From Eledone cirrhosa (lineage: Eukaryota): 64,000 bases of DNA. The notes beneath the pieces are model-generated. The model made no database searches, had not been told where the DNA came from, and saw only the letters and a list, made by a program, of their open reading frames with translations. Positions 414-56,258 of this stretch are shown here, one piece after another. Within the stretch, counting starts at the first letter, position 1. Each line of letters opens with the position of its first letter. Made by a program: the position numbers and the translations under genes. The stretch is taken from positions 312,294,001-312,358,000 of the forward strand of contig OZ024741.1 of NCBI GenBank assembly GCA_964016885.1. Reading direction: 5' to 3'.

Positions 414-538
414 TTCCACTGACGATTTATAAGTGCCCACCTAAATATATTCTTAGATGAAAATATGTTAGGCTTCTACATAAACTGGAAACATTCTCCC
501 AACTTGTAGAGAACTTATAATGAAACAATTGTTTGGAA
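414..538 (+). ncRNA. Type I hammerhead ribozyme motif in monomer 1 (repeated once per monomer)
   Basis: Stem I TTCCA(414-418)/TGGAA(534-538); core CTGACGA (419-425); stem II T-TTATAAGT(426-434)/ACTTATAA-T(513-521) enclosing two further hairpins; GAAA (522-525); palindromic stem III CAATTG (526-531); GTT triplet with predicted cleavage after 533. The order matches the CUGANGA...GAAA...NUH consensus. Confidence 0.85.
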
Positions 539-1161: not shown

Positions 1162-1286
1162 TTCCACTGACGATTTATAAGTGCCCACCTAAATATATTC
1201 TTACATGAAAATATGTTAGGCTTCTACATAAACTGGAAACATTCTCCCAACTTGTAGAACACTTATAATGAAACAATTGTTTGGAA
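1162..1286 (+). ncRNA. Type I hammerhead ribozyme motif, monomer 2
   Basis: Same elements as monomer 1; predicted cleavage after 1281, 748 nt from the first site. Confidence 0.85.
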
Positions 1287-28200: not shown

Positions 28201-29145
28201 ATTTTAACTTTAATTATGTCTCATATAAAATAATACAACTGGCTTTCCACAAAATACATATAGTTAGCACCCGAAACACTTAAATTGGGTTTATACTAAC
28301 GTATAACCTAATTTTTGTTGAGTGAGATGGTTACCAGTCGGAGTTTAGCTTAAAGCTATCTCTGTTATCGTATTAAATATTTTACTCATGATTTGGCCAG
28401 AGACTTTTATTTCCAGGTACCTTATAAACACGACTTTCCGTATTTATTACTGTTATGAGATATTGTTTGTTTTTTGGGGTATCACTTCTCTGTTTTTAGC
28501 TTAAGAAAATATCTATATGCGTGTGTAAATACTTACATGCATACATTTATTTTTTTAAGTTAATTGAGTTCATAACACGCAGGACTGATAATGTTTGTGA
28601 AAAAACTAATTAACCCACGTGTATTTTATTTTACTTTTCTCGTGACCCGTGGTTGTCTCTCTTTTCCGCTTCGTGACGCTATGATACTTCCTCAGTCAAA
28701 AGACTGCTGGAATTTCAAATTTGGCGGTCATTCGATGCGTAAAGGGACAACTTAGCGGACACGAAAATTAACTGCGCTAACGAATGTTTTCTTGTATCAA
28801 AGTTTAATCGGCATCCACTGACGACTTATAAGTGTCCACCTAAATATATTCTTACATGAAAATATGTTAGGCTTCTACATAAACTGGAAACATTCTCCCA
28901 ACTTGTAGAAAACTTATAATGAAACAATTGTTTGGAAAGAGAGATATATTTTAACTTTAATTATGTCTCATATAAAATAATACAACTGGCTTTCCACAAA
29001 ATACATATAGTTAGCACCCGAAACACTTAAATTAGGTTTATTCTAACGTATAACCTAATGTTTGTTGAGTAAGATGGTTACCAGTCGGAGTTTAGCTTAA
29101 AGCTATCTCTGTTATTGTATTAAATATTTTACTCTTGATTTGGCC

Positions 29146-32100
29146 AGAGACTTTTATTTCCAGTTACCTTATAAACATGACTTTCCGTATTTATTACTGT
29201 TATGAGATATTGATTGTTTTTTGGGGTATCACTTCTCTGTTTTTAGCCTAAGAAAATATCTATATGCGTGTGTAAATACTTACATGCATACATTTATTTT
29301 TTAAAATTAATTGAGTTCTTAACACGCGGAATTAATAATGGTTTTGAAATAACTAATTAACCCGCGTGTATTAAATATTTTACTCTTAATTTGGCCCGAA
29401 ATTTACATTCCCAAATGCCTTTTAAAGCGTAACATTCCGTATTTATTACAGTTATGAGATGTGGTTTGTTATTTAGGTATCACTTTCTCTGTTTTTAGCC
29501 TAAGAAATTATCTATATTTGTGTGTAATTAATACACGCTTACATTTATTTAAAAAAAATTAATTGAGTTCTTAACACACATGATTGATACTGTTTTTGAA
29601 AAAACTAATTAACCCAGGTGTATACTATTTTACTTTTCTTGTGACTCGTGGTTGTCTCCCTTTTCCGCTTCGTGACGCTATGATACTTCCTCAGTCAAAA
29701 GAGTGCTGGAATTTCAAATTTGGCGGTCATTCGATGCGTGAAGGGACAACTTAGCGGAAACGAAAATTAACAGCGGTACGGAATTTTTTCTTACATCAAA
29801 GTTTAATGGGCTTCCACTGACGATTCATAAGTGCCCACGTAAATATATTCTTACATGAAAATATGTTAGGCTTCTACATAAACTGGAAACATTCTCCCAA
29901 CTTGTAGAAAACTTATAATGAAACAATTGTTTTGAAAGAGAGATATATTTTAACTTTAATTATGTCTCATATAAAATAATACAACTGGCTTTCCACAAAA
30001 TACATATAGTTAGCACCCGAAATACTTAAATTAGGTTGATACTAACGTATAACCTAATGTTTGTTGAGTGAGATGGTTACCAGTCGGAGTTTAGCTTAAA
30101 GCTATCTCTGTTATTGTATTAAATATTTTACTCTTGATTTGGCCAGAGACTTTTATTTCCAGTTACCTTATAAACATGACTTTCCGTATTTATTACTGTT
30201 ATGAGATATTGATTGTTTTTTGGGGTATCACTTCTCTGTTTTTAGCCTAAGAAAATATCTATATGCGTGTGTAAATACTTACATGCATACATTAATTTTT
30301 TCAAGTTAATTGAGTTCTTAACACGCGGAATTAATAATGGTTTTGAAATAACTAATTAACCCGCGTGTAATAAATATTTTACTCTTAATTTGGCCAGAGA
30401 TTTACACTCCTAAATGCCTTTTAAAGCGTAACTTTCCGTATTTATTACAGTTATGAGATGTGGTTTGTTATTTAGGTATCACTTTCTCTGTTCTTAGCCT
30501 AAGAAATTATCTATATTTGTGTGTAATTAATACACGCTTACATTTATTTAAAAAAAATTAATTGAGTTCTTAACACGCGGGATTGATACTGTTTTTGAAA
30601 AAACTAATTAACCCAGGTGTATATTATTTTACTTTTCTTGTGACTCGTGGTTGTCTCCCTTTTCCGCTTCGTGACGCTATGATACTTCCTCAGCCAAAAG
30701 AGTGCTGGAATTTCAAATTTCGCGGTCATTCGATGCGTGAAGGGACAACTTAGCGGACACGAAAATTAACTGCGGTAAGGAATTTTTTCTTTTATCAAAG
30801 TTTAATGGGCTTCCACTGACGATTTATAAGTGCCCACCTAAATATATTCTTACATGAAAATATGTTAGGCTTCTACATAAACTGGAAAGATTCTCCCAAC
30901 TTGTAGAAAACTTATAATGAAACAATTGTTTGGAAAGAGAGATATATTTTAACTTTAATTATGTCTCATATAAAATAATACAACTGGCTTTCCACAAAAT
31001 ACATATAGTTAGCACCCGAAACACTTAAATTAGGTTTATACTAACGTATAACCTAATGTTTGTTGAGTAAGATGGTTACCAGTCGGAGTTTAGCTTAAAG
31101 CTATCTCTGTTATTGTATTAAATATTTTACTCTTGATTTGGCCAGAGACTTTTATTTCCAGGTACCTTATAAACATGACTTTCCGTATTTATTACTGTTA
31201 TGAGATATTGATTGTTTTTTGGGGTATCACTTCTCTGTTTTTAGCCTAAGAAAATATCTATATGCGTGTGTAAATACTTACATGCATACATTTATTTTTT
31301 AAAATTAATTGAGTTCTTAACACGCGGAATTAATAATTGTTTTGAAATAACTAATTAACCCGCGTGTATTAAATATTTTACTCTTAATTTGGCCCGAGAT
31401 TTACATTCCCAAATGCCTTTTAAAGCGTAACATTCCGTATTTATTACAGTTATGAGATGTGGTTTGTTATTTAGGTATCACTTTCTCTGTTTTTAGCCTA
31501 AGAAATTATCTATATTTGTGTGTAATTAATACACGCTTACATTTATTTAAAAAAAATTAATTGAGTTCTTAACACGTATGATTGATACTGTTTTTGAAAA
31601 AACTAATTAACCCAGGTGTATACTATTTTACTTTTCTTGTGACTCGTGGTTGTCTCCCTTTTCCGCTTCGTGACGCTATGATACTTCCTGAGTCAAAAGA
31701 GTGCTGGAATTTCAAATTTGGCGGTCATTCGATGCGTGAAGGGACAACTTAGCGGAAACGAAAATTAACAGCGGTACGGAATTTTTTCTCATATCAAAGT
31801 TTAATGGGCTTCCACTGACGATTCATAAGTGCCCACGTAAATATATTCTTACATGAAAATATGTTAGGCTTCTACATAAACTGGAAACATTCTCCCAACT
31901 TGTAGAAAACTTATAATGAAACAATTGTTTTGAAAGAGAGATATATTTTAACTTTAATTATGTCTCATATAAAATAATACAACTGGCTTTCCACAAAATA
32001 CATATAGTTAGCACCCGAAATACTTAAATTAGGTTGATACTAACGTATAACCTAATGTTTGTTGAGTGAGATGGTTACCAGTCGGAGTTTAGCTTAAAGC

Positions 32101-35100
32101 TATCTCTGTTATTGTATTAAATATTTTACTCTTGATTTGGCCAGAGACTTTTATTTCCAGTTACCTTATAAACATGACTTTCCGTATTTATTACTGTTAT
32201 GAGATATTGATTGTTTTTTGGGGTATCACTTCTCTGTTTTTAGCCTAAGAAAATATCTATATGCGTGTGTAAATACTTACATGCATACATTAATTTTTTC
32301 AAGTTAATTGAGTTCTTAACACGCGGAATTAATAATGGTTTTGAAACAACTAATTAACCCGCGTGTATTAAATATTTTACTCTTAATTTGGCCAAAGATT
32401 TACATTCCCAAATGCCATTTAAAGCGTAACTTTCCGTATTTATTTCAGTTATGAGATGTCGTTTGTTACTTAGGTATCACTTTCTCTGTTTTTAGCCTAA
32501 GAAAATATCTATAATTGTGTGTAATTAATACACGCATACATTTATTTAAAAAAAATTGAGTTCTTAACTCGCAGGATTGATAATTTTTTTGAAAATATAA
32601 TTAACCCACGTGTATATTATTTTACTTTTCTCGTGACTAGTGGTTGTCTCCCTTTTCCGCTTCGTGACGCTATGGTACTTGCTCAGTCAAAAGAGTGCTG
32701 GAATTTCAAATTTGGCGGTCATTCGATGCGTGAAGGGACAACTTAGCGGACACCAAAATTAACTGCGGTAAGGAATTTTTTCTTATATCAAAGTTTAATG
32801 GTCTTCCAATGACGATTTATAAGTGACCACCTAAATATATTCTTACATGGAAATATGTTAGGCTTCTACATAAACTGGAAACATTCTCCCAACTTGTAGA
32901 AAACTTATAATGAAACATTGTTTGGAAAGGGAGATATATTTTAACTTTAATTATGTCTCATATAAAATAATACAACTGGCTTTCCACAAAATACATATAG
33001 TTAGCACCCGAAACACTTAAATTAGGTTTATACTAACGTATAACCTAATGTTTGTTGAGTGAGATGGTTACCAGTCGGAGTTTAACATAAAGCTATCTCT
33101 GTTATTGTATTAAATATTTTACTCTTGATTTGGCCAGAGACTTTTATTTCCAGGTACCTTATAAACATGACTTTCCGTATTTATTACTGTTATGAGATAT
33201 TGTTTGTTTTTTGGGGTATCACTTCTCTGTTTTTAGCCTAAGAAAATATCTATATGCGTGTGTAAATACTTACATGCATACATTTATTTTTTTTAATTAA
33301 TTGAGTTCTTAACACGCGGAATTAATAATGGTTTTGAAATAACTAATTAACCCGCGTTTATTAAATATTTTACTCTTAATTTGGCCAGAGATTTACATTC
33401 CCAAATGCCATTTAAAGCGTAACTTTCCGTATTTATTTCAGTTAAGAGATGTCGTTTGTTACTTAGGTATCACTTTCTCTGTTTTTAGCCTAAGAAAATA
33501 TCTATATATGTGTGTAATTAATACACGCATACATTTATTTAAAAAAAATTGAGTTCTTAACTCGCTGGATTGATAATGTTTTTGAAAATATAATTAACCC
33601 ACGTGTATATTATTTTACTTTTCCCGTGACTAGTGGTTGTCTCCCTTTTCCGCTTCGTGACGCTATGATACTTGCTCAGTCAAAAGAGTGCTGGAATTTC
33701 AAATTTGGCGGTCATTCGATGCGTGAAGGGACAGCTTAGCGGACACCAAAATTAACTGCGGTAAGGAATTTGTTCTTATATCAAAGTTTAATGGGCTTCC
33801 ACTGACGATTTATAAGTACCCACCTAAATATATTCTTACATGAAAATATTTTAGGCTTCTACATATACTGGAAACATTCTCCCAACTTGCAGAAAACTTA
33901 TAATGAAACAATTGTTTGGAAAGAGAGATATATTTTAAATTTAATTATGTCTCATATAAAATAATACAACTGGCTTTCCACAAAATACATATAGTTAGCA
34001 GCCCAAACACTTAAATTAGGTTTATACTAACGTATAACCTAATGTTTGTTGAGTGAGATGGTTACCAGTCGGAGTTTAGCTTAAAGCTATCACTGTTATT
34101 GTATTAAATATTTTACTCTTGATTTGGCCAGAGACTTTTATTTCCAGGTACCTTATAAACATGACTTTCCGTATTTATTACTGTTATGAGATATTGTTTG
34201 TTTTTTTGGGTATCACTTCTCTGTTTTTAGCCTAAGAAAATATCTATATGCGTGTGTAAATACTTACATGCATACATTAATTTTTTTAAGTTAATTGAGT
34301 TCTTAACACGCGGAATTAATAATGGTTTTGAAATAACTAATTAACCCGCGTGTAATAAATATTTTACTCTTAATTTGGCCAGAGATTTACATTCCCAAAT
34401 GCCTTTTAAAGCGTAACTTTCCGTATTTATTACAGTTATGAGATGTGGTTTGTTATTTAGGTATCACTTTCTCTGTTCTTAGCCTAAGAAAATATCTATA
34501 TTTGTGGGTAATTAATACACGCATACATTTATTTAAAAAAAATTAATTGAGTTCTTAACACGCATGATTGATAATATTTTTGAAAATCAATTACTCCGGG
34601 TGTATATTATTTTACTTTTCTCGTGACTCGTTGTTGTCTCCCTTTTCCGCTTCGTGACGCTATGATACTTCCTCAGTCAAAAGAGTGCTGGAATTTCAAA
34701 TTTGGCGGTCATTCGATGCGTGAAGGGACAACTTAGCGGACACGAAAATTAACTGAGGTAAGCAATTTTTTCTTTTATCAAAGTTTAATGGGCTTCCACT
34801 GACGATTTATAAGTGCCCACCTAAATATATTCTTACATGAAAATATATTAGGCTTCTACATAAACTGGAAACATTCTCCCAACTTGTTGAAAACTTATAA
34901 TGAAACAATTGTTTGGAAAGAGAGATATATTTTAACTTTAATTATGTCTCATATAAAATAATAAACTGGCTTTCCACAAAATACATATAGTTAGCACCCG
35001 AAACACTTAAATTAGGTTTATACTAACGTATAACCTAATGTTTGTCGAGTGAGATGGTTACCAGTCGGAGTTTAGCTTAAAGCTATCTCTGTTATAGTAT

Positions 35101-37085
35101 TAAATATTTTACTCTTGATTTGGCCAGAGACTTTTATTTCCGGGTACCTTATAAACATGACTTTCCGTATTTATTACTGTTATGAGATATTGTTTGTTTT
35201 TTGGGGTATCACTTCTCTGTTTTTAGCCTGAGAAAATATGTATATGCGTGTGTAAATACTTACATGCATACATTTATTTTTTTAAATTAATTGAGTTCTT
35301 AACACGCGGAATTAATAATGGTTTTGAAATAACTAATTAACCCGCGTTTATTAAATATTTTACTCTTAATTTGGCCAGAGATTTACATTCCCAAATGCCT
35401 TTTAAAGCGTACCTTTATTACAGTTATGAGATGTGGTTTGTTATTTAGGTATCACTTTCTCTGTTTTTAGCCTAAGAAATTATCTATATTTGTTTCGTAA
35501 TTAATACACGCTTACATTTATTTAAAAAAAATTAATTGAGTTCTTAACACGCAGGATTGATAATGTTTTTGAAAATCAATTACTCCGGGTGTATATTATT
35601 TTACTTTTCTCGTGACTCGTGGTTGTCTCCCTTTTCCGCTTCGTGACGCTATGATACTTCCTCAGTCAAAAGAGTGCTGGAATTTCAAATTTGGCGGTCA
35701 TTCGATGCGTGAAGGGACAACTTAGCGGACACGAAAATTAACTGCGGTAAGGAATTTTTTCTTTTATCAAAGTTTAATGGGCTTCCACTGACGATTTATA
35801 AGTGCCCACCTAAATATATTCTTACATGAAAATATGTTAGGCTTCTACATAAACTGGAAACATTCTCCCAACTTGTTGAAAACTTATAATGAAACAATTG
35901 TTTGGAAAGAGAGATATATTTTAACATTAATTATGTCTCATATAAAATAATACAACTGGTTTTCCACAAAATACATATAGTTAGCACTCAAACACTTAAA
36001 TTAGGTTTATACTAATATATAACCTAATGTTTGTTGAGTGAGATGGTTACCAGTCGGAGTTTAGCTTAAAGCTATCTCTGTTATTGTATTAAATATATTA
36101 TTCTTGATTTGGCCAGAGACTTTTATTTCCAGGTACCTTATAAACATGACTTTCCGTATTTATTACTGTTATGAGATATTGTTTGTTTTTTGGGTATCAC
36201 TTCTCTGTTTTTAGCCTAAGAAAATATCTATATGCGTGTGTAAATACTTACATGCATACATTTATTTTTTTTATTTAATTGAGTTCTTAACACGCGGAAT
36301 TAATAATGGTTTTGAAATAACTAATTAACCCGCGTGTATTAAATATTTTGCTCTTTATTTGGCCAGAGATTTACATTCCCAAATGCCTTTTAAAGCGTAA
36401 CTTTCCGTATTTATTACAGTTATGAGATGTGGTTTGTTATTTAGGTATCACTTTCTCTGTTTTTAGCCTAAGAAAATATCTATATTTGTGTGTAATTAAT
36501 ACACGCATACATTTATTTAAAAAATATTAATTGAGTTCTTAACACGCATGATTGATAATGTTTTTGAAAAAACTAATTAACCCACGTGTATATTATTTTA
36601 CTTTTCTCGTGACTCGTGGTTGTCTCCCTTTTCCGCTTCGTGATGCTATGATACTTCCTCAGTCAAAAGTCTGCTGGAATTTCAAATTTGGCGGTCATTC
36701 GATGCGTGAAGGGACAACTTAGCGGACACGAAAATTAACTGCGGTAAGGAATTTTTTCTTATATCAAAGTTTAATGGGCTTCCACTGACGATTTATAAGT
36801 GCCCACCTAAATATATTCTTACATGAAAATATGTTAGGCTTCTACATAAACTGGAAACATTCTCCCAACTTGTAGAAAACTTATAATGAAACAATTGTTT
36901 GGAAAGAGAGATATATTTTAACTTTAATTATATCTCATATAAAATAATACAACTGGCTTTCCACAAAATACATATAGTTAGCACCCGAAACACTTAAATT
37001 AGGTTTATACTAACGTATAACCTAATGTTTGTTGAGTGAGATGGATACCAGTCGGAGTTTAGCTTAAAGTTATCTGTTATTGTAT

Positions 37086-37090
<5 letters not shown>
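29146..37090 (+). repeat. Long-monomer layer (~1 kb) containing a diverged ~250-bp internal tandem duplication
   Basis: After ...TTAACCCGCGTG each unit restarts with TATTAAATATTTTACTCTTAATTTGGCC and a diverged second copy of the first ~250 bp. Confidence 0.95.
36780..36904 (+). ncRNA. Type I hammerhead ribozyme motif, last monomer
   Basis: TTCCA-CTGACGA-TTTATAAGT...ACTTATAAT-GAAA-CAATTG-TT-TGGAA is intact in the terminal long-type monomer. Confidence 0.85.
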
Positions 37091-37437: not shown

Positions 37438-37510
37438 GGTCAGGTAGCTCAGTCGGTAGAGTAGCGGACCGGGAATCCGAAGGTCGTGTGTTCGATTCCC
37501 ACCCTGATTA
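37438..37510 (+). pseudogene. tRNA-like sequence (nominal anticodon GGG), probably a pseudogene or element-borne tRNA head
   Basis: Cloverleaf: acceptor GGTCAGG/CCTGATT, D arm GCTC/GAGT, anticodon arm GCGGA/TCCGA with loop CCGGGAA, T arm GTGTG/CCCAC with TTCGATT loop; TTTT follows at 37512. It has stem mismatches and C instead of U33. Confidence 0.75.
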
Positions 37511-40805: not shown

Positions 40806-40926
40806 AGGGAAATGTTCAGGACCCCGACGGCAGAGCTGAAGCCGTTTCGATGGCTATTTCAAGTATTTCAGAAATAACCGTCGAAACGGCTTGAGCTCTG
40901 CCGTCGGGGACCTGAACCTTTTCCTA
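40806..40926. repeat. GC-rich ~120-bp imperfect hairpin
   Basis: GTTCAGGACCCCGACGGCAGAGCTGAAGCCGTTTCGATGGCTATTTC pairs with GAAATAACCGTCGAAACGGCTTGAGCTCTGCCGTCGGGGACCTGAAC. Confidence 0.9.
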
Positions 40927-41555: not shown

Positions 41556-41969
41556 ATAAAACAAAGAGATAATGATAACAAATAGGTAATTAGGATTGAG
41601 GGTATTTTGAAAAGTGTAATCTCAATGGATAGAGATGACGATTTATGAAGATTACGGCTATGAGGGGTGATTGATGCTGTATGTGAAGGAAGGTATTTGA
41701 AGGGATGTGTCTTTAAAGAAAAAATACTTAATCACCGAGGAAGGGCCGGTTAATCTTGCTTTCTATTAGTTGGTGGTGTAACTTTTGAAGATTTAAAGAA
41801 AGCTTGCGCTCGTACGTGAATAACCGTTAACCATGGTAAGGAGGTGTCAAAGTGGTTCGTTGGCGCCAATTTAGCAGACACAATAAATCCAGGGAGTTGT
41901 ATTGTTTACATGGATAATGAGGTTGCTGGATCGAATCATGTTTAACTCGGTTTGTAATTCGGAAATTTA

Positions 41970-42720
41970 CTAGTGCCTACAAAAAATTATCCGCTCGATT
42001 TTGCCTTTTAGTAGCGTCTTATTATACGGTAGAATATTGAGTAACTCCATATTGCATAGTCCGCATTGGGACATCCCGTTCGTGTAGGCTTTTGTATTCG
42101 ATAATTTCAACCAGCTACTTTTATATCCTTGATTATTGTCCTTAAGTTGCCAGATTTTATTGACCAACGTCGGTTTATAACTGGGCCTCCAGTCCTCTAT
42201 GGAGTGCCGATGCACATACCATCGTTTTTAAAGGCACTAGTCGTAGAACCTATGTAATACCACATATGGTTGCCAGACTTAATAGTGCACGGATATACTA
42301 TACCGGAATCCAGGCATCTATTCTGTAGTGGGCCTTTATCCGGCAGGTGGCAGTTACATTTGGAGACATTCCTACGTGATGGTTCCTCGTTATAGTTCGA
42401 TTTGTGGATTGAGATGGACTTGGATGCTAGTCTGTTTGTGTTTTGTTGTGACATATATCGACGGACAGCCGGTTGTGATGCTGTTATGCGGTTGTGTTTT
42501 GTATTTGATGCTGTGGTGATGGTTTGTGGACTACATTTTTTAGATATTCTCCTGGAGTTTTTTATGTGTGATTCGTTGTTGATGTCCTCGAGTGTACCTT
42601 CAAGGGTTTGCCGGTATTTTTTGTGTAGTTCACGGCGTATAAAGCTGTTGTAGGTGTCTAGGCTCATGGTATATACGTTCGATATTTTGTCCGCTTTAAC
42701 TATAATTCAGTCAGTATTGC
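41970..42720 (-). mobile_element. Penelope-like element remnant: N-terminal region plus frameshifted GIY-YIG endonuclease
   Basis: IIVKADKISNVYTMS...; CNCHLPDKGPLQNRC...GIVYPC...YYIGSTTSAFK; next frame ...AYTNGMSQCGLCNME...CRH. These are PLE-type GIY-YIG motifs. Confidence 0.85.
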
Positions 42721-43521
42721 CTAGTTTTTTTTCAAAAGTGCATTGATGTCGTTCTGCAGTTTGTTGTGACCAATGCATTCTTTTAAAACTTAATTCCACT
42801 TATTCTCTTCATGAGGTCGAGTTCAAAAGCGTCAAGCTGGGGTTACTTGGTGGGTCTTTGCAAGGTTTAAATCCGCATTACTCTGTAGTGTTTCCGTCAA
42901 TATCAGTTGTGTATCCCTTGCCTTAATGATATGCTTTCCATCGGATTCGATGGTTAAATCATTGGTGCGCTGCACCATGCCGAGTGTATAATACCTGTTT
43001 GTAGGTATAGGCAACATTTTAGTGACATGCCTATGTTGTGCTTTTCCATGTTAATGCCTGGCGTTTAAATTCTTACTCAACTTGGTTGGAGCTAATCATA
43101 TTAGTTAACGAGGTATCGTTTAAGGCAATCCAAGTAGAGATTTTGAGTACTCTGTATCGGGGATAGTTGAACGTTCGGAGTTGTTTCACTCAACAAGACA
43201 TTCACTTAGTTGTGGTGTTCGGGTGGCCGATTTAAGACAGTTCCCATGTAAAAAGTTCCTGGACTATTAATAATAAATGAGTGAAGAATAAAATGGGTCT
43301 GCTGTACGATAGGATTTATTCGAAGTATTAACAAATTTTGCATTAGTCCAGTGTGTCTAAAAACTGCTATTCGCATTATGGTGCAGCACCCGATTTTAAT
43401 TACAATTGAAACCCGACCAAATATATATTTCAAAACATATATATATCAGGATAGAAACAGTTTGAAACTCGTTAGACCATTACTCTACAGAGTACGCGAT
43501 ACTTGGGGTAGTAGGGTATGA

Positions 43522-44043
43522 CTCCATTATAATGATTCAGTATCCGAGGACTTAGCTCTAGCCTTTTCAATAACTTGTTCGAGAATCTGTAGGTTAAACT
43601 ACCCTACTCTCACCAACCGTAGAAGCAACTGTAACTGCCGTTACCCTAATGCATGCCCACTAAATGGACACTGCCGGACACCCAACATAGTCTATAGGTG
43701 CACGGTTAAAACTGCTTCGAATACCAGCTCCTATATCGGGTCTACCTCTATCCTTTTTAAGGTACGCTATAACGCGCCCTCTTTTTCCTTCCGAGACCCT
43801 AACAACAGATGTTCGACATCTCTAGCTAGGCTCATTAAAAATCTTAAATTAAACAACATTGAACACTCACCAACATGGGATATCTTAGCTAGGGCCCAAC
43901 CGTTCAATGGACGAAGAAAATATTGTGATCACTGTATTACCGAAGCATATTACAAAACTCTATCACGACCTCTACCGATTAACGATAGAACGGAGGTAAC
44001 TATTAGCTGTCAACATCGAAGGGCTAATTCCTTCGCCAACTGA
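43522..44043 (+). mobile_element. Penelope-like GIY-YIG endonuclease, open frame lacking a start codon (absent from the ORF track)
   Basis: Manual translation from 43621: RSNCNCRYPNACPLNGHCRTPNIVYRCTVKTASNTSSYIGSTSILFKVRYN...WDILARAQPFNGRRKYCDHCITEAYY...NDRTEVTISCQHRRANSFAN*. Confidence 0.88.
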
Positions 44044-44440
44044 ATATTTGACCCAACATAGTCATCTAGCCCCATTTTTACTGGTAGCTAATAAGTTAAA
44101 TAGCTATAACTAACTTAGATAATTATAAGTTACCTCCCCTACATTGTCTCTCAATTAAAAAAATAAAAACATTAGCACTTAACTATAAACTACACACAAT
44201 TTCTAATCTCTCGAGGAGTTAGTTCCCCTGAAACCACCCTCTAATCAGTAAGGTAAAAATGTCCATTGGCGGCCATCTTGTTACCCATAGGCAGATCTAA
44301 CACAATGCAGCCTCGACAGTAGAATACTGCTTGATTATGGCAGACAATTGATACATCCAGGACACCATAGTGAAATACCAATATATGGAACATTTCATTA
44401 TGTAACATTCTTTCCTTATTTTAATTTATATTCCTTTGAA

Positions 44441-44559
44441 GTTCCGATGAGCCGCTCTATCTTTAATTATGTTAATTATTTTCAACTGAACCAGATCCAT
44501 AATGATATATAGTCATTTTATCCAGAAATATTATATGGAGTAGCGAAACAATTGTAAAC
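44441..44559 (+). ncRNA. Degenerate type I hammerhead with long stem II insert at the 3' end of the PLE
   Basis: GTT-CCGATGA-GCCGCTCTAT...ATGGAGTAGC-GAAA-CAATTG-TA-AAC; the core has C in place of U4. Confidence 0.7.
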
Positions 44560-44867
44560 GGACATTATTATTATTAATATTATTATTATTATTCTCTACA
44601 TTCCTTATATCAAACTAAAATGTGTTGACAATCTTTTAATAATGTCTTCCTTGTGAAATTCGTGGTTTTGATTTGCTTAACTAATGAATATTTCCAGCCC
44701 TGTGCGCCTAACTTCTGCATGAACCCAGCCACCTAGCTGCTTTCCACTACATATTGCACATTGAGCACATGCCTTTCCGATTTGGCCTCTAACTAATTCA
44801 CCAATCTCTCCTCTCCTATCTCCTCGCCTATATCCATCTCTCTCTTTAAGATTGGTTACTCTTCAAT

Positions 44868-44948
<81 letters not shown>

Positions 44949-45094: not shown

Positions 45095-45208
<114 letters not shown>

Positions 45209-45591: not shown

Positions 45592-45717
45592 AAAGTTCTA
45601 TTTAAATTGTTGGGATACAACAAGCAAATATTATTATAACTGATATAAAGCACTCGACAAATATTTGGAGTAGATATACAATATTAATAAATGGAAACTA
45701 TTTATAAAACCATATTT

Positions 45718-45780
45718 ATTTCATTATATATATTTCAAGGATACCAAGTTAAATCATGGTATGCCTTCATCAGACAAAAT
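45718..45780 (-). ncRNA. Type I hammerhead motif
   Basis: Minus strand: ATTTTGT-CTGATGA-AGGCATACCA TGATTTAACT TGGTATCCTT-GAAA-TATATA-TA-ATGAAAT. Confidence 0.8.
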
Positions 45781-46721
45781 ACAATATATAACAGTTTTAC
45801 AAATAGATATTGACGTACCCTTTCAAAAAGGTGACCGTTGTTTTTGGAGGCCATCCGGATAGTGGTTTGTTTACTTTAATAAGTCATAGTGTTAAGAGTA
45901 AGTAAAAAGATGGAGAGAGAGAGAGAGAAAAACGTGGAGAGAAGATAGATAAAGAAAAAGAAGAAAGCAAAGAGAAAAGAGAACAGAGGAAAAATAACGG
46001 GGAGATATCAAAACATCAGACAGAGAAAGAACTCAAGAGAGAGATATGCAGAGATAGAGAGAGGGGGGAGAGAACGAAAACCTTAAGTTATGTTATATTA
46101 AGTTGAGTTAACAATTGAGATGAAATGAATAAATAAAATTAGAAATATTAATATTCGTGAATGGAATATAAATATATAATATGAGAGATTACACATTGTT
46201 TAATTATGATTATATATTTAGTTTAAAAATTGTGATCAATATATAAAAAATTGGAATTTAAACATTATAAAATATATATATTGCGAGAGAGATTATCTAT
46301 CGTATATCACATATACATAGGCAAAGGTACATAAATATATATATATACTCACTCACTCAGAAAATACACATTATATCTACTCCCGCACATAATGTATACA
46401 TACAAAGCATAAGTGATTTTTTATTTATTGCTATACATTCCTTGTGTTATTAATTAAAAGATTTTAGTATATATATATAAATATATAGGATTAACTTTTC
46501 TGCATTTATGGCTGTTAAATTATGTATATCTGCAATCAAAAGCTGCATGTGTAAGCCTGTACATTCACACCCATAATTCTTAGCTATATATGAATAGATA
46601 TGTGTGTGCATCTTCAATTGGCATACATGCGTCACTCATGCATATAGTTGCTGCAGACATAGATTGAACTCAACGTTTAAATATAAATATAAATTTAAAA
46701 TGTAGTTCTCTCCCCCCCTCT

Positions 46722-46956: not shown

Positions 46957-49900
46957 TTTTCTTTATTAACCACAAGGGTTTACATAAAGTAGACATTAAG
47001 GACAGTACAGGACAATAGAGGACGGTACAAATGGGCATTTCTGCGTGTAAAAAAACAGAGGATGTAATAAAATAACAAAGAAAAATTCCCCAATAGGGGG
47101 GAGACTTCCGAGGGACATTTGTGGAGAAAGCCCATTAAAAGACCACAGTGACATACTCAGAGAAGGCCCATTCATTCGGGCCATACTTGCTTCTCTCACC
47201 CATCTTTCAACAAAATGCTGGAAAGAGAGCACTTCCCTCTCTACCCTGATTTTCCTTTTCAAATGAAATTTGAAAAAGTTAATCAGGGCATCACCGAAGA
47301 GGTAAGTGCTCGTCTTCAGCCCTTTCAAACGTGTCCACTATACTATCTCTTTCGCCATGGCCACCAGACAGATAAAAACTGCCTGCCCTTCCCGGCTAAA
47401 GGAAGAGGGCGGGGCAATCCTCACGATGGACTCAGCTGATAGCTGGATCCGTCCTACACGTGACAGTAGGTGTTCGACATAAACCCACAAGTCAGCAATG
47501 CTCGGACACTGGACGAGTGCGTGCAGGACGGTTTCGTCGCCCTGTGCGCATCTCGGAAATGCCCGGCTGACGGCACCTCCATGTCTGTAGAGTTTATCTC
47601 GAAATGGCAAAGCTCCCCGGTAGCACTGCCAGGCCAGGGATTTCTGGAAGTTGTCCATAGGCCCCGGCCCGAAAGTCCTTCCGAAGAGATTGGCTAGTTG
47701 ATTTTCGTCGAAGCCCAGAATTTCTCCAAGTACGTCGTCGCTCTTCCCCTCCACTAATCCTCTATATAACGCCAAGGTGGAGTTTCCACCGATCACATTG
47801 CCCGATTGGTCGAGGGCTGTGAGCGCCTGAAGACATTCCAGTCTCCAAGCGCTCCCTCTCGGTCTTCGCTTGACCCAGGACTGCAGCTCCGTCAAGGAGA
47901 CGAGCTGGGGAAAAACGTGTCTAGCAAACGGCGACCACACCTGATCACCGTCGAGGAAGAGGTGGAGATGTCGTAGCCTGAGCGCGTGTCTGCGCATCAT
48001 CAGCCACGGCATGCCCAGCCCTCCACGTAGCGGGTGTTGACAGCAGAGGACCGCCTGACCATCGGAGCGCGTCCCTTCCACAAGAAGCGAAAGAGCAAAC
48101 GCTCCAGCGCAGTCAGGCGGGGCTTAGGACAAGATACGACGGTCAGGCAGTAGTAGATGACGGACGCGATGTATGCGTCAGCCACCTCCGCTCGACCTTT
48201 CAGGGAGAGCTTCCTCTCGGCCCATTTCTGGGTGAGAGCAGCCACCCTGCTCGTCACCTCGTCCCAGTTTTTGTCCGTCTGGAGGTCTGGACCGAACCAG
48301 ACCCCTAGTAATTTAACCGGTCCGTCCGTCCAACGCCCGACGACGCTGTTGGACGGCATGGATCTGCTTCTCCAGGTGCCGAGCTGCAGGCCCACTGACT
48401 TTCCCTGGTTGATCATCGCTCCTGTCACCGCTTCGTATTCTCTTAGTGTAGTGCCGATCGCCTCGATGTGTTTGGCGTTCGACTCCACTACAGGGACATC
48501 GTCCGCATATGCTGACACGGATCTTCGGCATCCTAGTTCGCGTGGAACCCCCCTCAACGTCTCCAGTTTGTGTAGTAATGGCTCAAGAGTCAATACGTAC
48601 AATAGGGACGGGAGCGGACATCCTTGGCGGACCGAGCGCATGATGTTGAACGGTTCCGAAAGGTGACCGTTCACTCTCACTACAGAGCAGATGTCGCTGT
48701 GCATGGCAGCGATCCAGCCTCTGAAGACGGGCCCAAAGCCAGCCGCCCTCAGGACTGCCGCTAGGTAACGATGGTCGACCCTATCGAAGGCTTTCGACTG
48801 ATCTAAATTGATCAAAGACCCACCCGTGCCAGGTCCCAAGCTACCCTCTCTACGATGTATCGCATAAGGTAGAGGTTGTCGTGGATGGATCTGTCGGGAA
48901 TGGCGCATGTCTGTGCCTCTCCCACCAGATCACCAACGACAAGCGCCAACCTCTTTGCTAGCACCTTGGCCAAAATCTTGAACTCTGTGTTTAGCAGAGT
49001 TATGGGCCTAAAATTATCTATGTTATCCCCCTTGTTCGGATCCTTTCTCAGCAGCGCCACCGCTCCTCGGCTCACAGAGCTGGGAATTCTCCCGTTCTGT
49101 TGCCAGTTGCAGTAGACGTCCGCCAAGAGGCCTCCGAACAAGTCTGGCATTTGTACGTAAAGTTCATAGGACAGACCATCCAAACCAGGCGATTTACCTC
49201 TTGTGCAGCCAGTCATTGCCTCCCGTACTTCAGCGGTTGTTATCGGCTTTTCGCAACACTCCGCCTCAGTGGCCGAAAGCCGCGACAGTCCGTCGAGGTA
49301 GACACTAAAGTCCATCCCTCGACCCGGCCCGCCATTGCCTCCGAACAGCTGAGCGAAATTGCGCTGAAAAGCTTCACACATTTGCCCGGGATCGAGTAGC
49401 ATAAGCCCGTCGTAGTCTACCAAAGACCGGATCGTGGCTTTGTTGCCACGACGCGCCTCCGCCACTCGGGCCCATTGAACGGCTTTCGTCCCGTCGTGTC
49501 TGAGAGCACACACCCTAGCACTGACAACGCAGCCTTCGTGCTTTGCATTGAAGAATTGGTCAAGGGCCTATTTCGCCGCAAGTACGTCGGTCGCGCTGTC
49601 TTTGCTAAGCGCCTCGTCTAATTTTCTAACTAATTCTCCCTCTGCTCTATTTTTCTCTATTGCTAAAGCCTTACTAAACCTAATGGACTCTATTCTAATT
49701 GCTCTTTTCAGAGCAAACCACCACTTGTTGTTGACGATGGCCCCCGTCAACGCCCGCTTAACTAGTTCGCTAATCCGGTCTCTGTAGGCCTTGCGCGCTG
49801 ATAAGGACGCGTGTAGCTTCCAGTAGCCAGGTCCTCGTCTATGAAGCCTATCTAAGTCAAGCACACAGATCACGAATTTGTGGTCCGTGTAGCTGACTAT

Positions 49901-52792
49901 CTTGAATTGTGGACAGCCTATGCTAGACCTATTTATTTCCCTACACAATACTCTATCTAGATATGATCTGGATGACCCTATGCGATTTGTCCAAGTCCAC
50001 ATTGGTACATTCGGGAAATCCATTCGGTACCTGTCAGACAGTTCAAAACGCCTGAGCATGTTGGTGAGACACTTGCACCCTCCTTCCCTATCCACTAATC
50101 CCACACAATCCCATCTTGCATCTAAGATCCCGTTCCAGTCGCCCACTAACACTAAAGTGCGGGACGTTCCAAGAAAGGTCTCCAGACGTCGGAAGAAATC
50201 AGGCCGCCCTGCTCCTGTCGGAGCATAGATGGCCACTAACGTCAAAGCTTGCCCGTCTCCGCTGGTCACGTCCAGCACCACCAACTTACCTTCTGGGTCC
50301 AGGGAGATGGCCCGTATGGCAAGATCCAAACCTCTCCGAAAAAGCACAGCAACTCCTCCCCCGATCCCGGACGGCTGGGAGATGCATACACATCGTAGCC
50401 GACTAAGATCGGTGCGAAGGCCCGTGCTTCGGAGTTTCTGGTCTCGCTGATGGCCACTACCTCTATGTTTAGTGACCCGAGGTCGTTGAACAGGTGGCCC
50501 TGCTTCCATGACGACCCCAAGCCACGCGCATTTATGCTGCCTATTCTGAGTGAGGTTATGTTGAAAAGGAGCGGAAAAGATGGGAAAGACCACTTACCTT
50601 AATTCTCGTAGGGGAACGACGGTTTTTCCATCCCTTTCACTGCTTGTGGCCTCCTCAGGAAGGATGTCCTTATAAATTCTCCTGGAGAGTGCTTGTCGGA
50701 TGTCTCCGATGTCTTTGGGGAATTTTTGTTTTAGTGTCATGTACGTTTTCTGTGTGATGCGAGTGATTTGTATGTGTGGAGGTGGTGTGAATTTTTGGGT
50801 TGTTGTGTTGTCATTTTCTGTGATGCTGGTGTTGTGTTTGATGTAGTGTAATAATTGGTTGTTGTTCAAACTTAATGCTGTGTAGTGTGTATCGTTTTGG
50901 TTGTTTTGTTTTGTTTGCGTTTGTTTCTGTTTCGCATTTTGGTGACTTTTGTGGTGTAGGTGATGGTGGTGTTGGGGTTAATGATGGTGATGGTGTTGGT
51001 GTTTGGGTTGATGGGGTTGGTGATGCTGGTGTGGATGGTGGCATATCTGTCCTAACTCTTTTGTTTGTTAATTTATTTGTTTCCCTCTGTATTTTGTTTT
51101 TGGAGGGGGAAGGAAGAGAATTTTTTCTTATTTGGTTTATTATTTTTTTTCCTGATACCGTTTCCAACTCCTCGTCGTCACAATCTGTCTCCAGTTGTGA
51201 TAGGCCGGGGAGTGGAAAATCCTCCACGGGCGTTAGTTTTGGTTGTGGCGTGGTGGATGGTGTAGGCGCTGGTGCTAGTTCTGAAGCGTTGGGTGGTGGT
51301 GGTGTTGGTTTTGCTGGTGGTGGTGGTGTTGGTTTGCTACTGTTGCTGGGGTTGTTGCTGTTATAGTTGCTTCTGTTGTTGCTGCTACAATTGTTGCTGC
51401 CATCTCTGCTACTGGTGGTGTTGATGGTTGTGTCACTGGGGTGGGTAGGAGAGGTGGCCTCAACCTTTTAGCCTGAGGGCAGAAAGCCCTTAGGTGGGTT
51501 CCTTCACCACAAACGACACACCTAGGCCTTCTGCCCTCGACAATTACGGTGAGGTGCCGTCAGTGAGGTCTATTACCTCTGGGATCTCCTCAATGCTTTT
51601 TTGGTCCGCTTGGATCAGGAGCTCCATCCCAGATCCGGACCAGTTCTCCTGCTTTTCTTTTGCTATTGCTATTATCTTTGTGTTGGCTTCGATGCCGGCG
51701 AGGACGGCCGCTATTAGCCAGGGAATTTCGATGGCCGGTGGAACGTGGGTCACCCTGATCTTTACGAGTCTCTGGCCACAATAGCTTGGGACGAGTGTGA
51801 AGTCGTCACTTCTTAATGGGGTCATGGAGTGTTCTCTAGTATCCTCTGGTGTTTCAAAGAACACGTCCACGGTTCCATACTTCTGCCCACGTCTGATGTG
51901 GGTTTTTCTTGCCCACACATGTTCCAAAGCTTTTTGGATTTGGGACTCGGATGCCCGTTCCACTCGGGGCGATTTTACATTTATTGTTCGATACGACACG
52001 GTGCATAGGCGCCGATGCTCCATTTTATTAGGTGGGGGGTGAGGCTGACCCTGTGACCATCTTTCTTTACCATTTGTCTGGCATTTTCTAATTCCTCCTG
52101 AGTTACCGTAAATGCTTCTCACTGTTTTGCTACTCTGGCAAAACTCAAGGTGGTTTTTTTAATGTCATTGTTGTTGTTGTTGCTATCGTTATTTTTGTTA
52201 CTATTAATTTTAGTTTCAGTTGTGGTGGTGGTGACGTCAGTGAAGTTCGGTTTGGGAGAGTCCATTTTGGTTGAAAATATTTCGACATCACGAGTTGATT
52301 TATTTTTTCCTTTTGTTTCTGTTGTCGCGTCGGTGGTGGTGGTGGTGGTGGTGGGGGGGGGGGGGGGGTTGTCGCGGTGGTGGTGGTGGTGACGGCTTTA
52401 ACACCTACAGTCATTGGTAATGGCGGGAAATGAATGTCTGCCTGAGACAAATTTAAAATATTGCTAGTGCTTAAATTGTTTGTGTTGGCAGACGTATAAT
52501 CATTTACAATGGTGGTGTCGGTGTGAGGTGTTAATTTGTGAGAAAGGCTTTCAGCAGCTTGGTGCAGTGGTGAATTAGCCATTTTTTTCTCAAAGAAATT
52601 TTTTGATAATCATAAAAGTTTAAATTTTGGGCACAAGGCCCCAATCTTTTTGCGTGTCCTTTTCGGAAAACAATGTATGTGCGCTTATATATAGTTAACA
52701 ATAAAAAATTTCCATAAATGGCAATTTTTAACAAACGGAAATAACAAACCTTTGCGGAGCTCACGATGATACGATTTACTACGTAGGTCGCC
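46956..52792 (-). mobile_element. Apparently full-length (~5.8 kb) Tx1/L1-clade LINE, disrupted by frameshifts and stops
   Basis: ORF1 pieces (52582 to ~50594) include the zinc knuckle CVVCGEGTHLRAFC. ORF2 pieces carry APE motifs (AIYAP, VGDWN, SYLDR, TDHK), RT motifs (KSPGLDG, FRPITLLN, DQSKAFDRV, RQGCP, YADD) and C-terminal ETVLHALVQC. AATAAA at the 3' end; (AAT)n on both sides. Confidence 0.95.
46996..50593 (-). pseudogene. ORF2 (AP endonuclease-reverse transcriptase) of the Tx1-type LINE, split over at least five ORFs
   Basis: ORFs 49568..50593, 48812..49513, 48000..48908, 47338..48081 and 46996..47328 give colinear domains. Confidence 0.93.
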
Positions 52793-53152: not shown

Positions 53153-56100
53153 TGCCAGACAAGCGAGCCGGCGGGAAATGAAGGTGAGGAGGTCCTGAGA
53201 ACGGAGGAACCACCCGAAGCAGACAATGATCTGAATACTGAGATAAATAATACCTGGAACAGAGATACGGCCACTGAGGAGATGAATGCTGACGGGCTAG
53301 GACAAGATTCGGTTGACATCCTAAATTTAGTGGTAGATGAGTTGAACAACAATGATAGTGGGAGACCTATGAACCTAAGATTTGTAGACAGGAAAAAGTT
53401 AAAAGAAACAACAGCTAAGGTAAACAAAGTCATCCCATACCTTGAGGCGAGGAGTCTTCACCAGTGCAACAATATCCTCAAAGCAACAGCAAATACGGTG
53501 AGGAAACTACTTGGTATAAAAGCGAGAGGAAACAACAGACAAGAAAGAGCAGAGCCGTGGTGGAAGAAGCGACTGAGTGGGCAAATCGGGGAAATGAGAA
53601 ATGACATAGGAAAGCTTGAGTCACTACTGAATGGGACACTAAAAAACATAGGCACTAAAAATAGAATGGAAATAAAATACAAAACTAGGAGTAAAAACTA
53701 AATATTATCATAGAGGAATTGAAGCAACGCATTGTAGCAAAGAGTGCCAAAATCAGGCGATACGAGAACAGAGTCAGTCAGTATAAACAGAACCGCATGT
53801 TCGACAACAACCAGAAGATGCTGTTTGGACAGCTTGAGGGGAAAGAAAGAGGCAACGACTTGATCCCTGGGGCGGAACAAGCTAAAACATTCTGGAGAGG
53901 AATATGGGAGCAGGATGTTAGACACAATGCCCAGGCAGGGTGGATTGAGACAGTACAGAGGGAGATCGGTGAGCAGGCACAGCAACAGACTGATTTGAGT
54001 ATCACAGTTGAAACTCTTAAGGGGCAAGCCAAAAAACTAACCAACTGGAAATCACCAGGCCCAGATGGTGTGCAGGGGTATTGGATTAAACATTTAACAT
54101 CCCTCCACCCGAAGCTGACGGCCATGTTCAATGACTGCTTGGTGTCGGGTGAGGTGCCAGAGTGGTTGACAAAAGGTACCACAGTTCTGATAATGAAAGA
54201 CCGAATCAAGGGTAATGATGTTACCAACTATAGACCTATCACATGTCTGCCCGTAATGTGGAAACTGTTGACGAGCATTGTGTCTGAGGAAATCTACCAT
54301 CACCTCCACACAAACAACTTGTTGCCGGACGAACAGAAAGGATGCCGAAAGAAGTCACGTGGTACAAAGGACCAGTTGCTTATTGATAAGATGGTAATGG
54401 GGAATTGCAGGAGGAGACACACTGATCTTGCCATGGGATGGATAGACTACAGAAAGGCATTTGACATGGTGCCTCATTCCTGGATCACCAAAAGCCTGGA
54501 GATCTTCAGGGTGGCAGATAACATCAGACAGTTGCTGGGCAGGAGTATGGGGTCCTGGGAGACAGAGTTGACATCAACTGGAGTATCCTTGGGAAGCGTG
54601 AAGATCAAGAGAGGTATCTTCCAGGGAGATAGCCTGTCCCCTCTGTTGTTTGTCCTTGCCCTGATGCCCTTGACCATTATGCTGCGAAACGTGAGAGCAG
54701 GATACAAGTTGGGAAGGGGAGAGCTTACCATCAATCACCTCCTCTTCATGGACGATCTTAAGCTCTTCGGGAAAAGTGAGAAGGAGTTGGATGTGCTTGT
54801 TGACACTGTCCGTATTTTCAGCAGTGATATATGTATGCAGTTTGGTATTGGAAAATGTGGAGTCATTGTGATGAGGAGGGGTAGGTTGAGCAGAAGTAAC
54901 GGGATCCAGATACCAACAGGTGAGATGATAAAGGAAATTGACTCTGAGGAAGGATACAAGTATTTGGACGTTCTGGAGGCTGATGGCATAAAGAACAAAA
55001 AAATGAAGGAATTGTTAAGAACTGAATACATTCGGAGAGTAAGGAGCGTATTGAAGTCACATCTGAACAGCAGAAATGCCATAAGCGCAGTAAATTCCCG
55101 AGCTGTGTCTATTATTAGGTACAGTGCGGGAATTCTGAGATGGAATGTTGCTGAACAAAAAGAAATGGATAGGAAGACTAGGAAGCTATTGACTATCTAC
55201 AACATGTTCCACAAGAGGAGTGATGTCGATAGACTCTACCTAAGGAGATCTGAGGGTGGAAGAGGTCTTATCAGCATAGAGGACTGTGTTCAGATGGAGA
55301 AAAACAACCTATACAAATACGTGACCTATAGTAAGGAGCCAATGCTCAGAGCTGTACTGAAGGAGGGGACAGTAGGCCAGGGGATACCCAAGGAGGAAAT
55401 AACATCAAGGAGGAAGAGCAGCCTTAAGGGAAAATCCCTTCATAGTACCTTCTTTGAGAAAACTGAATTTAGAGATCCACAGACATGGAACTGGTTGAGA
55501 AGAGGAGACCTCAAAAAGGCTACAGAAGGAATGCTAATGGCTGCGCAGGAGCAGGCCCTCAAAACGAAGTGGTTGAAGCACCATATCTACAAGGAGGAGG
55601 CTAGCCCACTGTGCAGGATCTGTGGAGAGAGAGAGGAGACTGTGGCTCACATTGTGTCCGAGTGTAAAGACCTAGCCCAGACCCACTATAAGGGCTGGAG
55701 ACACGATGTGATGGGCAGGGTGATCCACTGGCACCTGTGCAAAGTAAACAATCTACCACATTCTGAGAAATGGTATGAGCATAGGCCAGAGGCGGTGATG
55801 GAGAACAGTCAGGTGAAGGTGCTGTGGGATTTTAGGATACAGACGGACAAAAAACTGGAACACAATAGACCTGACCTGGTGGTTGTGGACAAAGAAAAAA
55901 GATCGTGCCTGATTGTGGATGTGGCCTGCCCGTTCGACACGAGAGTGCAAGAGAAGGAGAGGGAGAAAATTAACCGATACCAGGACCTAAAGTGGGAGGT
56001 GAAAAGGATTTGGAACTGCCATGAAGTCAAAGTGATCCCGATTGTCATAGGCGCACTGGGGACTATCTCCAAAGGTTTCCAGGGATGGTTAAAGAAAATC

Positions 56101-56258
56101 GGCCCCTTCACGCTTTTTGGAACGCTTCAAAAGGCATGCTTGCTTGGAACGGCAAGAACCCTCCGATACGTCCTGAATATCTGAGGCTGCAGGTAGTGGC
56201 TTGATATTCAATCCAACGGACTTTCCAGTTAACCAACATCAATGACTGAGATTCAAGG
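53152..56258 (+). mobile_element. R4/Dong-like non-LTR retrotransposon (RT plus restriction-like endonuclease), 5'-truncated, one frameshift near 53695
   Basis: RT motifs (KSPGPDG, YRPITCL, IDYRKAFD, GIFQGDSLSP, FMDD), CCHC finger CRIC...HIVSEC, RHD and RPD...D...K REL motif; (TAA)n on both sides. Confidence 0.93.
53719..56184 (+). CDS. Reverse transcriptase/REL endonuclease frame (821 aa, C-terminal part of the element ORF)
   Basis: Uninterrupted ORF with all RT and REL motifs; the upstream part lies in frame 53282..53701. Confidence 0.9.
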   Translation: MKQRIVAKSAKIRRYENRVSQYKQNRMFDNNQKMLFGQLEGKERGNDLIPGAEQAKTFWRGIWEQDVRHNAQAGWIETVQREIGEQAQQQTDLSITVETLKGQAKKLTNWKSPGPDGVQGYWIKHLTSLHPKLTAMFNDCLVSGEVPEWLTKGTTVLIMKDRIKGNDVTNYRPITCLPVMWKLLTSIVSEEIYHHLHTNNLLPDEQKGCRKKSRGTKDQLLIDKMVMGNCRRRHTDLAMGWIDYRKAFDMVPHSWITKSLEIFRVADNIRQLLGRSMGSWETELTSTGVSLGSVKIKRGIFQGDSLSPLLFVLALMPLTIMLRNVRAGYKLGRGELTINHLLFMDDLKLFGKSEKELDVLVDTVRIFSSDICMQFGIGKCGVIVMRRGRLSRSNGIQIPTGEMIKEIDSEEGYKYLDVLEADGIKNKKMKELLRTEYIRRVRSVLKSHLNSRNAISAVNSRAVSIIRYSAGILRWNVAEQKEMDRKTRKLLTIYNMFHKRSDVDRLYLRRSEGGRGLISIEDCVQMEKNNLYKYVTYSKEPMLRAVLKEGTVGQGIPKEEITSRRKSSLKGKSLHSTFFEKTEFRDPQTWNWLRRGDLKKATEGMLMAAQEQALKTKWLKHHIYKEEASPLCRICGEREETVAHIVSECKDLAQTHYKGWRHDVMGRVIHWHLCKVNNLPHSEKWYEHRPEAVMENSQVKVLWDFRIQTDKKLEHNRPDLVVVDKEKRSCLIVDVACPFDTRVQEKEREKINRYQDLKWEVKRIWNCHEVKVIPIVIGALGTISKGFQGWLKKIGPFTLFGTLQKACLLGTARTLRYVLNI

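Follow-up and report, generated by a model that had tools for sequence, protein, structure and literature searches.

A predicted type I hammerhead ribozyme, likely a slow cutter, lies in the pseudo-LTR (pLTR) of a young Penelope element of the Hydra clade in the genome of Eledone cirrhosa. We consider it likely that this motif has its long insert and its stem III as general features of such elements, and that the large satellite array beside it is a separate retrozyme lineage that probably depends on another partner. These observations come from a 64,000-nt stretch of contig OZ024741.1 (assembly GCA_964016885.1, positions 312,294,001 to 312,358,000 of the forward strand), which we call the window. 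Its features are collected in Table 1.

A predicted hammerhead in the pseudo-LTR of a Hydra-clade Penelope element

A first-pass annotation had named a CCGATGA about 400 bp past a GIY-YIG frame, a stem II with a long insert, and then GAAA-CAATTG-TA, and all of these are present as placed. The core begins 401 nt past the TGA of the GIY-YIG-type frame at 43522-44043. Stem I has 3 bp (GTT at 44441-43 with AAC at 44557-59), CCGATGA occupies 44444-50, and stem II (GCCGCTCTAT at 44451-60 with 44535-44) is paired at 9/10 positions, 2 of them G.U, with one C.A mismatch; this 10-position stem closes a 74-nt insert. GAAA (44545-48) is followed by CAATTG and then TA, and the predicted cut falls after 44556, in a GUA triplet. 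When compared to the type I core consensus (C3 U4 G5 A6 N7 G8 A9...G12 A13 A14 A15, U16 H17), every position is matched save U4, which is C. On these predictions the hammerhead is real, though weak-looking, and both its kind and the class of its host element are known.

Table 1. Features of the window, with positions counted from its first nucleotide.
Feature	Position	Strand	Remarks
The satellite (3' part), a tandem array of non-coding 747/999-bp units that spans 63,853 bp in all	1..37090	+	array bounded by (TA)n on either side; 46 CTGACGA cores lie inside the window
Hammerhead in the final unit of the satellite	36780..36904	+	TTCCA/TGGAA stem I, CTGACGA, U.U at 10.1/11.1, 8-bp stem II over two hairpins, GAAACAATTGTT
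tRNA-like sequence	37438..37510	+	Rfam RF00005, 54.5 bits; 350 nt past the array end; may be a SINE head
Palindrome of two opposed 3' ends of another Hydra-type family	40815..40925		as in L172, L170 and L085
Second, older, broken Hydra-type Penelope copy of another lineage	41600..43589	-	limits approximate; local copies within ~1.2 Mb, 82-85% protein identity
Decayed long-insert hammerhead in the pLTR of that older copy	43435..43330	-	
5'-truncated copy of a young Hydra-clade Penelope family (the neighbour element): linker end, endonuclease, 3' UTR/pLTR	43590..44876	+	family homology starts at 43590
Endonuclease part of its ORF	43590..44043	+	CxCX5C linker, IVY..YIG, CxxC..E, N..E..CxH
Its 3' UTR/pLTR	44044..44876	+	two family 3' ends, near 44691 and 44876
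Predicted type I hammerhead	44441..44559	+	stem I GTT/AAC, U4C core, stem II, GAAA, palindromic stem III ACAATTGT, GUA
Internal (ATT)n of the pLTR	44564..44593		
Short-loop type I hammerhead in a common repeat	45620..45800	-	core 45773; CTGATGA, 30-nt span, ATATATAT stem III; similar motifs recur in L065, L075, L172 and L220
Two LINE-type elements and a PIF1-like helicase fragment	47338..50593; 53695..56184; 58014..58700	-; +; +	RVT_1, Exo_endo_phos, zf-RVT

The host of this motif is a Penelope-like retroelement, as had been proposed, with a reverse transcriptase (RT) followed by a GIY-YIG endonuclease and Hydra motifs. In the full-length copy L118 a 727-aa open stretch carries YRDD and then IVY..YIG, and RRIRWK and SDKTK (the RWK and DKT motifs) are present in L118 and L119. 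The family has a CNCRYPNAC linker, CDHC/CDLC..E and N..TE....CQH, has no CCHH, and keeps one Cys only in the GIY-YIG core (read by eye). No significant Pfam family was found for the endonuclease or for the long ORF. The reading of a single ORF with RT and endonuclease comes from sequence motifs and 107 ORF homologues, Argonauta and Octopus proteins among them. The element is assigned to the Hydra clade because RWK, DKT, CxCX5C, CxxC, CxH and the (TA)n ends match the marks of that clade (PMC8557442). In a tree of 37 endonuclease rows, all from the Eledone cirrhosa genome, the family forms a long separate branch. The stop-to-stop frame opens at 43522 with ~22 residues that belong to an adjacent unrelated element.

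L118 has a hammerhead before and after the ORF in a unit of ~3.35 kb, confirming that the motif sits in the Penelope pLTR and that both end repeats carry it. The 3' region of the family is 94-100% identical among the best 40 of 2305 candidate places in the 3.0-Gb genome. Copies run into (TA)n either ~140 or ~330 nt past GAAA, which places the two 3' ends ~190 nt apart, and the window copy has the longer one. In 8/30 copies chosen by the long end, an adjoining inverted arm stops at the short end. By analogy, the two 3' ends would fit the two internal RT start sites of an anole element (PMC11167929), with a longer spacing. Other Hydra families also have two fixed 3' ends, ~155 nt apart (70 and 225-240 nt after GAAA).

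We give almost no credence to the idea that this arrangement arose by chance in AT-rich UTR sequence. Rfam reports no hammerhead family at the gathering threshold and none at E up to 10 over 36600-46000, and the MFE structure of the isolated 141-nt window sequence is not a hammerhead (z +1.40), both as a chance arrangement would have it; pairing probabilities in the motif are 0.01-0.02 for stem I and 0.4-0.74 for stem II. However, a fold descriptor, drawn up after the motif had been seen, matches none of 300 dinucleotide shuffles and finds two matches in the 26.9 kb outside the satellite (this motif and the short-loop motif at 45773, minus strand). Moreover, the same fold, built from other paired sequences, follows the endonuclease in four Hydra lineages that are separate in the tree, and this covariation of the stems across families rules out a chance origin.

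The long insert in other families and the catalytic state of the motif

A search within 1300 nt of the endonuclease, with no pairing filter, found the core and GAAACA(A/T)TTGT 55-115 nt apart in 18/47 endonuclease ends of other Hydra families; the remaining 29/47 have no anchor match, and some of these are cut short or decayed. The cores of the 18 motifs comprise 8 CCGA, 6 CTGA and 4 U3-A8 covariants. In stem II 119/144 cells are paired (slid controls at most 83, partner shuffles on average 105.4) and in stem I 94/108 (at most 53, and 75.3), where the relatedness of the 18 motifs means that shuffle p-values are not probabilities. Two further Hydra families have spans of 75 nt (5/10 loci) and 104-106 nt (6/10 loci), with stem III changed to ACGGTCGT and ACGATCGT, respectively, and one locus has a 116-nt span; in a further family the span is short, at 26 nt. 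Stem II domains of 66-116 nt and a recurrent U4C are spread across several Penelope families of this genome. The long stem II insert and the CAATTG stem III are common to many Hydra-type families here and carry no specific link to the satellite. In the family of the palindrome at 40815-40925, the hammerhead (by eye) combines a U3-A8 core with a stem III that is stable and 5 bp long, which could let it act as a monomer.

Within the neighbour family the core is strongly conserved. Across 52 copies C3, G8 and A9 are each present in 52/52, and position 4 is C in 47, T in 3 and A in 2; CCGATGA is the state of the family and not decay in the window copy. Stem I is an invariant 3 bp. Stem II substitutions between the two subfamilies stay paired, with G.U replaced by A-U in 17/51 copies and another pair reading A-U, G.U or G-C in 17, 20 and 11 of 51. 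The stability of the insert is about that of shuffles (z +0.07 in the window copy, -0.7 and -1.7 in two family copies). According to the available part of PMC3088659, U4C is a natural hammerhead variant whose in vitro activity is considerably lower, and viroid variants that carry it remain infectious. A stem III that is minimal and palindromic points to a dimer as the active form, and hammerheads of this sort are slow in vitro (PMC4209133, as far as accessible). The neighbour motif is thus best described as a predicted hammerhead that is likely a slow cutter.

It is conceivable, although we think it unlikely, that the motif no longer cuts usefully and is kept as a folded RNA signal, for instance in RT binding or dimerisation, in which case U4C and the 3-bp stem I would mark relaxed selection on catalysis. 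The reduced in vitro activity of U4C variants points this way, and hammerhead mutants of the anole Penelope insert unimpaired in vitro with no reads ending at the cut site (PMC11167929). In the neighbour family itself, two full-length copies run through the cut site and 0/30 tail-selected copies have a 5' end at most 5 nt from it. What tells against a purely structural role is that C3-G8 is exchanged for U3-A8, a covariation of the catalytic core, in 4/18 of the other-family motifs, that U4C viroids are infectious, and that the two subfamilies agree at all 14 positions of core and stem III despite 32 variable positions in the 236 nt examined. We continue to favor a hammerhead that cuts slowly. 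A separate candidate footprint of cutting in this family, 15/30 apparent 5' ends at +7 to +38, is confounded by an (ATT)n run with SINE insertions at that place.

A bolder proposal, which we regard as rather improbable, is that Hydra elements here gained a 50-95 nt stem II domain, often together with a slowed U4C core, as a module that serves as a recognition and timing signal for RT. If true, the module would also be retained, for copying in trans, by non-coding retrozymes like the satellite lineage, and a large class of ribozymes would have been missed, since it is invisible to Rfam and to short-loop descriptors.

The satellite is unlikely to descend from its neighbour

The satellite array begins 26.8 kb before the window, at a rearranged 5' junction, and has no attached ORF; the nearest Penelope to its start ends 3.4 kb upstream in its own TA run. 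GC content is ~0.32 and a single 103-aa stop-to-stop frame is found in 37 kb. Of 69 matched cores in the array, 54 are intact and 15 mutated, 12 of the latter alike. Along the window the units change from 747 bp (1-28800) to 999 bp (28800-37090) by a duplicated 252-bp segment, and both unit types are also found among dispersed copies. The monomer is dispersed in the genome, with 3397 candidates, and belongs to one of three non-coding families that are 71-77% identical: A (the satellite), B (695-bp unit) and C. This divergence is far greater than that within the neighbour Penelope family (94-98% alike). The hammerhead stems covary among the three families, with CAATTG of stem III replaced by CGATCG in family C and a canonical GUC site and altered stems I and II in family B, and the insert forms two hairpins in all three (z -3.8 to -5.6).

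Of the 71 blocks of this lineage that lie beyond the array, 68 run out into (TA)n, 53 have TA at their start and 25 are longer than one unit; duplicate loci of one place, loci inside the array and L235 (an apparent duplicate of L234) were left out of these counts. The fixed 3' end in (TA)n, the variable or truncated 5' ends and the partial tandems are Penelope-type insertion features, and support the earlier suggestion that the monomer is a non-autonomous element. Two hammerheads are counted as spanned in 9/67 copies, which calls for a circular or uncut multimeric template if each copy comes from one reverse transcription. The satellite fits an array of a dispersed non-coding retrozyme lineage, with a circular RNA stage suggested by analogy. 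An apparent clustering of 5' ends at -3 to +31 of the predicted cut in this lineage (10/19 at risk, nominal p 4e-5) was dismissed: of the 10, 6 have TA-like microhomology at their start, 2 extend across the site and 1 (L185) had been split wrongly.

The first-pass annotation had gone further and described the two hammerheads as having the same architecture, and this holds for their coarse shape. It had pointed to a common CAATTG stem III and a ~120-nt span. Both motifs have the ACAATTGT stem III and a similar A9-to-G12 span (94 nt in the neighbour motif, 96 nt in the satellite motif). In core, stem I, 10.1/11.1 pair, cut triplet and insert fold they all differ: the satellite has the canonical CUGA, a 5-bp stem I, U.U at 10.1/11.1, a GUU triplet and a stable two-hairpin insert (z -3.8), and the neighbour has CCGA, 3 bp, G10.1-C11.1 and GUA. 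The satellite motif shares the U.U pair at 10.1/11.1 and GUU with 14/18 of the motifs from other Hydra families, and differs in this from the neighbour motif.

From the common shape it had been argued that the monomer is an amplified pLTR, or a non-autonomous derivative, of this Penelope group. We find it very unlikely that the neighbouring family gave rise to the monomer, be it by amplification of its pLTR or by deletion. Beyond stem III and the span, the two loci lie 6.5 kb apart, both have (TA)n ends, and TTGGCGG(C/T)CAT occurs upstream of the core in both (by eye). Their common features are, however, shared by many Hydra families, and comparison by blastn (word 7) returns the 11-base core GAAACAATTGT and nothing past it, with a best E of 0.012 for an A-rich 19-mer; the annotation, too, had seen no visible homology in the flanks. 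Its own refuting condition, a lack of monomer homologues next to Penelope coding sequence, also speaks against descent, in that 0/71 blocks outside the array (taken from the best-scoring copies) form the 3' end of a Penelope ORF. The monomer lineage was also non-coding already at the split of its three families, and proximity is weak evidence given 2 endonuclease matches over the 120 kb upstream and another 2 inside the window. Insertion footprints differ as well: inverted arms at the 5' junction are found in 13/27 neighbour copies versus 1/63 of the satellite lineage, and on the 5' side TA is present in 3/27 as against 46/63 (Fisher p about 1e-7 for each), in samples that were chosen differently and with 7 neighbour 5' ends masked by SINE in (ATT)n. 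Because the homology, ORF-attachment and footprint comparisons all go against it, the neighbour family is unlikely to be the parent or partner of the satellite, and hammerhead shape together with proximity is, as a warning, a poor ground for parentage.

Five of the 71 blocks lie near coding fragments, and none of these is the ORF's own 3' UTR. L028, L066, L166 and L216, considered as joins of monomer and ORF, proved to be separate insertions; in L028, for example, the RT fragment is 412 nt off, with another repeat and (TA)n between. In L096 (1125-3400; see also L172) an inverted family-B 3' end is fused directly to a 5'-truncated Penelope of another family. This family-B piece is 99% identical to an adjacent copy and recurs past the element's 3' end, and the fusion may reflect joint insertion or local copying.

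That the satellite lineage arose from the pLTR of another Hydra family, one that is unsampled or extinct, is quite possible, and compatible with the explanation that we prefer. The U.U pair occurs in 14/26 Hydra rows of File S2 of PMC8557442 (in its available part) in addition to the 14/18 motifs of this genome, and the long insert and GUU triplet are common to the satellite and such families. There is also precedent in Xenopus, where 24/57 retrozyme families match transposons and 21 of 22 matched are PLEs (bioRxiv 10.64898/2026.07.22.740005, in the part accessible). Against this origin, a profile of the 18 other-family 3' UTRs scores the monomer at -1.9 bits (shuffle maximum -2.3) with only the 15-base core matched, and the L171, L167 and L168 families give no homology except an 18-base opposite-strand match to family A only. 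These genome searches cover the best 40-150 places of thousands of candidates, and a Hydra family with the monomer as its pLTR may lie outside them.

No Penelope partner of the satellite was identified among the best-scoring places sampled. A candidate partner is the L167 family, which has a satellite-like footprint (TA at the 5' side in 5/8, inverted arm in 1/8) and one copy 3.4 kb before the array. Its hammerhead is of the short-loop type, and it has no homology to the monomer (profile -2.3 versus a shuffle maximum of -3.6). Among the families scored besides the neighbour, inverted arms occur in 6/7 and 6/8 copies of two mostly two-armed families, in 1/8 of one mostly single-armed family and in 6/22 of a mixed clade. 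The exact 18-base opposite-strand match joins satellite unit positions 565-582 (family A) and the L167-family 3' UTR (L254-L262), is absent from the results for B and C, and is probably due to chance.

We propose, by analogy with published work, that in tandem or partial-tandem transcripts of the neighbour family a pair of motifs would join at the palindromic stem III and cleave behind GUA, so that the RNA is trimmed. Reverse transcription may then start at two internal downstream sites, giving the two fixed 3' ends, with nicks in (TA)n providing the primer. A Hydra-type element of some kind probably mobilised the satellite, as the shared footprint and hammerhead type suggest, and a Hydra-type RT/endonuclease likely copies its lineage in trans, with circular or multimeric RNA as the template; this partner is probably other than the neighbour family. 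One such insertion would then probably have expanded at the DNA level to 64 kb.

Comparison with known Penelope hammerheads and retrozymes

Both Penelope hammerheads and retrozymes from Penelope end repeats have already been published (PMC4209133; bioRxiv 10.64898/2026.07.22.740005). Our addition is modest: the element and the kind of ribozyme are known, and what is new is a structural variant missed by standard searches, which combines a long stem II domain with a recurrent U4C. A literature search by title and abstract, with most subscription journals outside it, returned no paper on cephalopod retrozymes or long-insert Hydra hammerheads, and for U4C it returned PMC3088659 only. The cited sources are compared here as far as their accessible parts go.

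Hydra-clade PLEs, including Hydra-1_Obim (PMC8557442), share with the neighbour element the C-terminal GIY-YIG, RWK, DKT, CxCX5C, CxxC and CxH, the targeting of (TA)n, a hammerhead near the 3' end, partial tandems and inverted 5' arms. The neighbour unit of ~3.35 kb compares to Hydra PLEs that are "generally <3 kb", which is, like the canonical short-loop hammerhead, a general but not strict trait, and its 3' ends ~190 nt apart compare to a 30-40 bp tail in other PLEs. The hammerhead itself departs further. All 26/26 Hydra hammerheads listed in File S2 of that paper have CUGA and a loop 2 of 3-10 nt, in contrast to CCGA and a 74-nt insert in the neighbour; loops to ~34 nt in the same file belong to non-Hydra plant elements, and the motif listed for Hydra-1_Obim is another, short-loop hammerhead.

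The minimal type I hammerheads of metazoan PLE pLTRs (PMC4209133) resemble the neighbour motif: they too sit in the pLTR, their stem I is short (2 bp in D. virilis), their helix II is long and contains a bulge or mismatch, their helix III is small and palindromic, which points to dimers, and their expected activity is low. The U3-A8 covariants of other-family motifs here are also seen among them. The available part of that paper describes neither a long insert under stem II nor a U4C that is fixed in a family. U4C and U10.1.U11.1 both occur in natural active ribozymes (PMC3088659), and there U4C is a rare viroid variant, in contrast to its place here as the majority state of the neighbour family that recurs in 8/18 other-family motifs. 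Such long-insert U4C motifs are natural constructs for asking whether Penelope hammerheads must cut, a question raised by the in vitro result of PMC11167929.

Metazoan non-LTR retrozymes resemble the satellite in being tandem repeats of a non-coding, low-GC unit that carries a single type I hammerhead, and they occur as dispersed monomers and long arrays alongside PLEs (PMC7229834; bioRxiv 10.64898/2026.07.22.740005). Many Xenopus retrozyme families have a pLTR homologue (bioRxiv 10.64898/2026.07.22.740005), unlike the satellite, for which none was found among the sampled families. With respect to known retrozymes (PMC7229834; bioRxiv 10.64898/2026.07.22.740005), the satellite stands apart in its 747/999-bp units, at or above the upper end of 51-972 bp, in its 64-kb array and in its long structured insert. 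The ends of this 64-kb satellite are those of the short copies of its retrozyme family that are dispersed in the genome.
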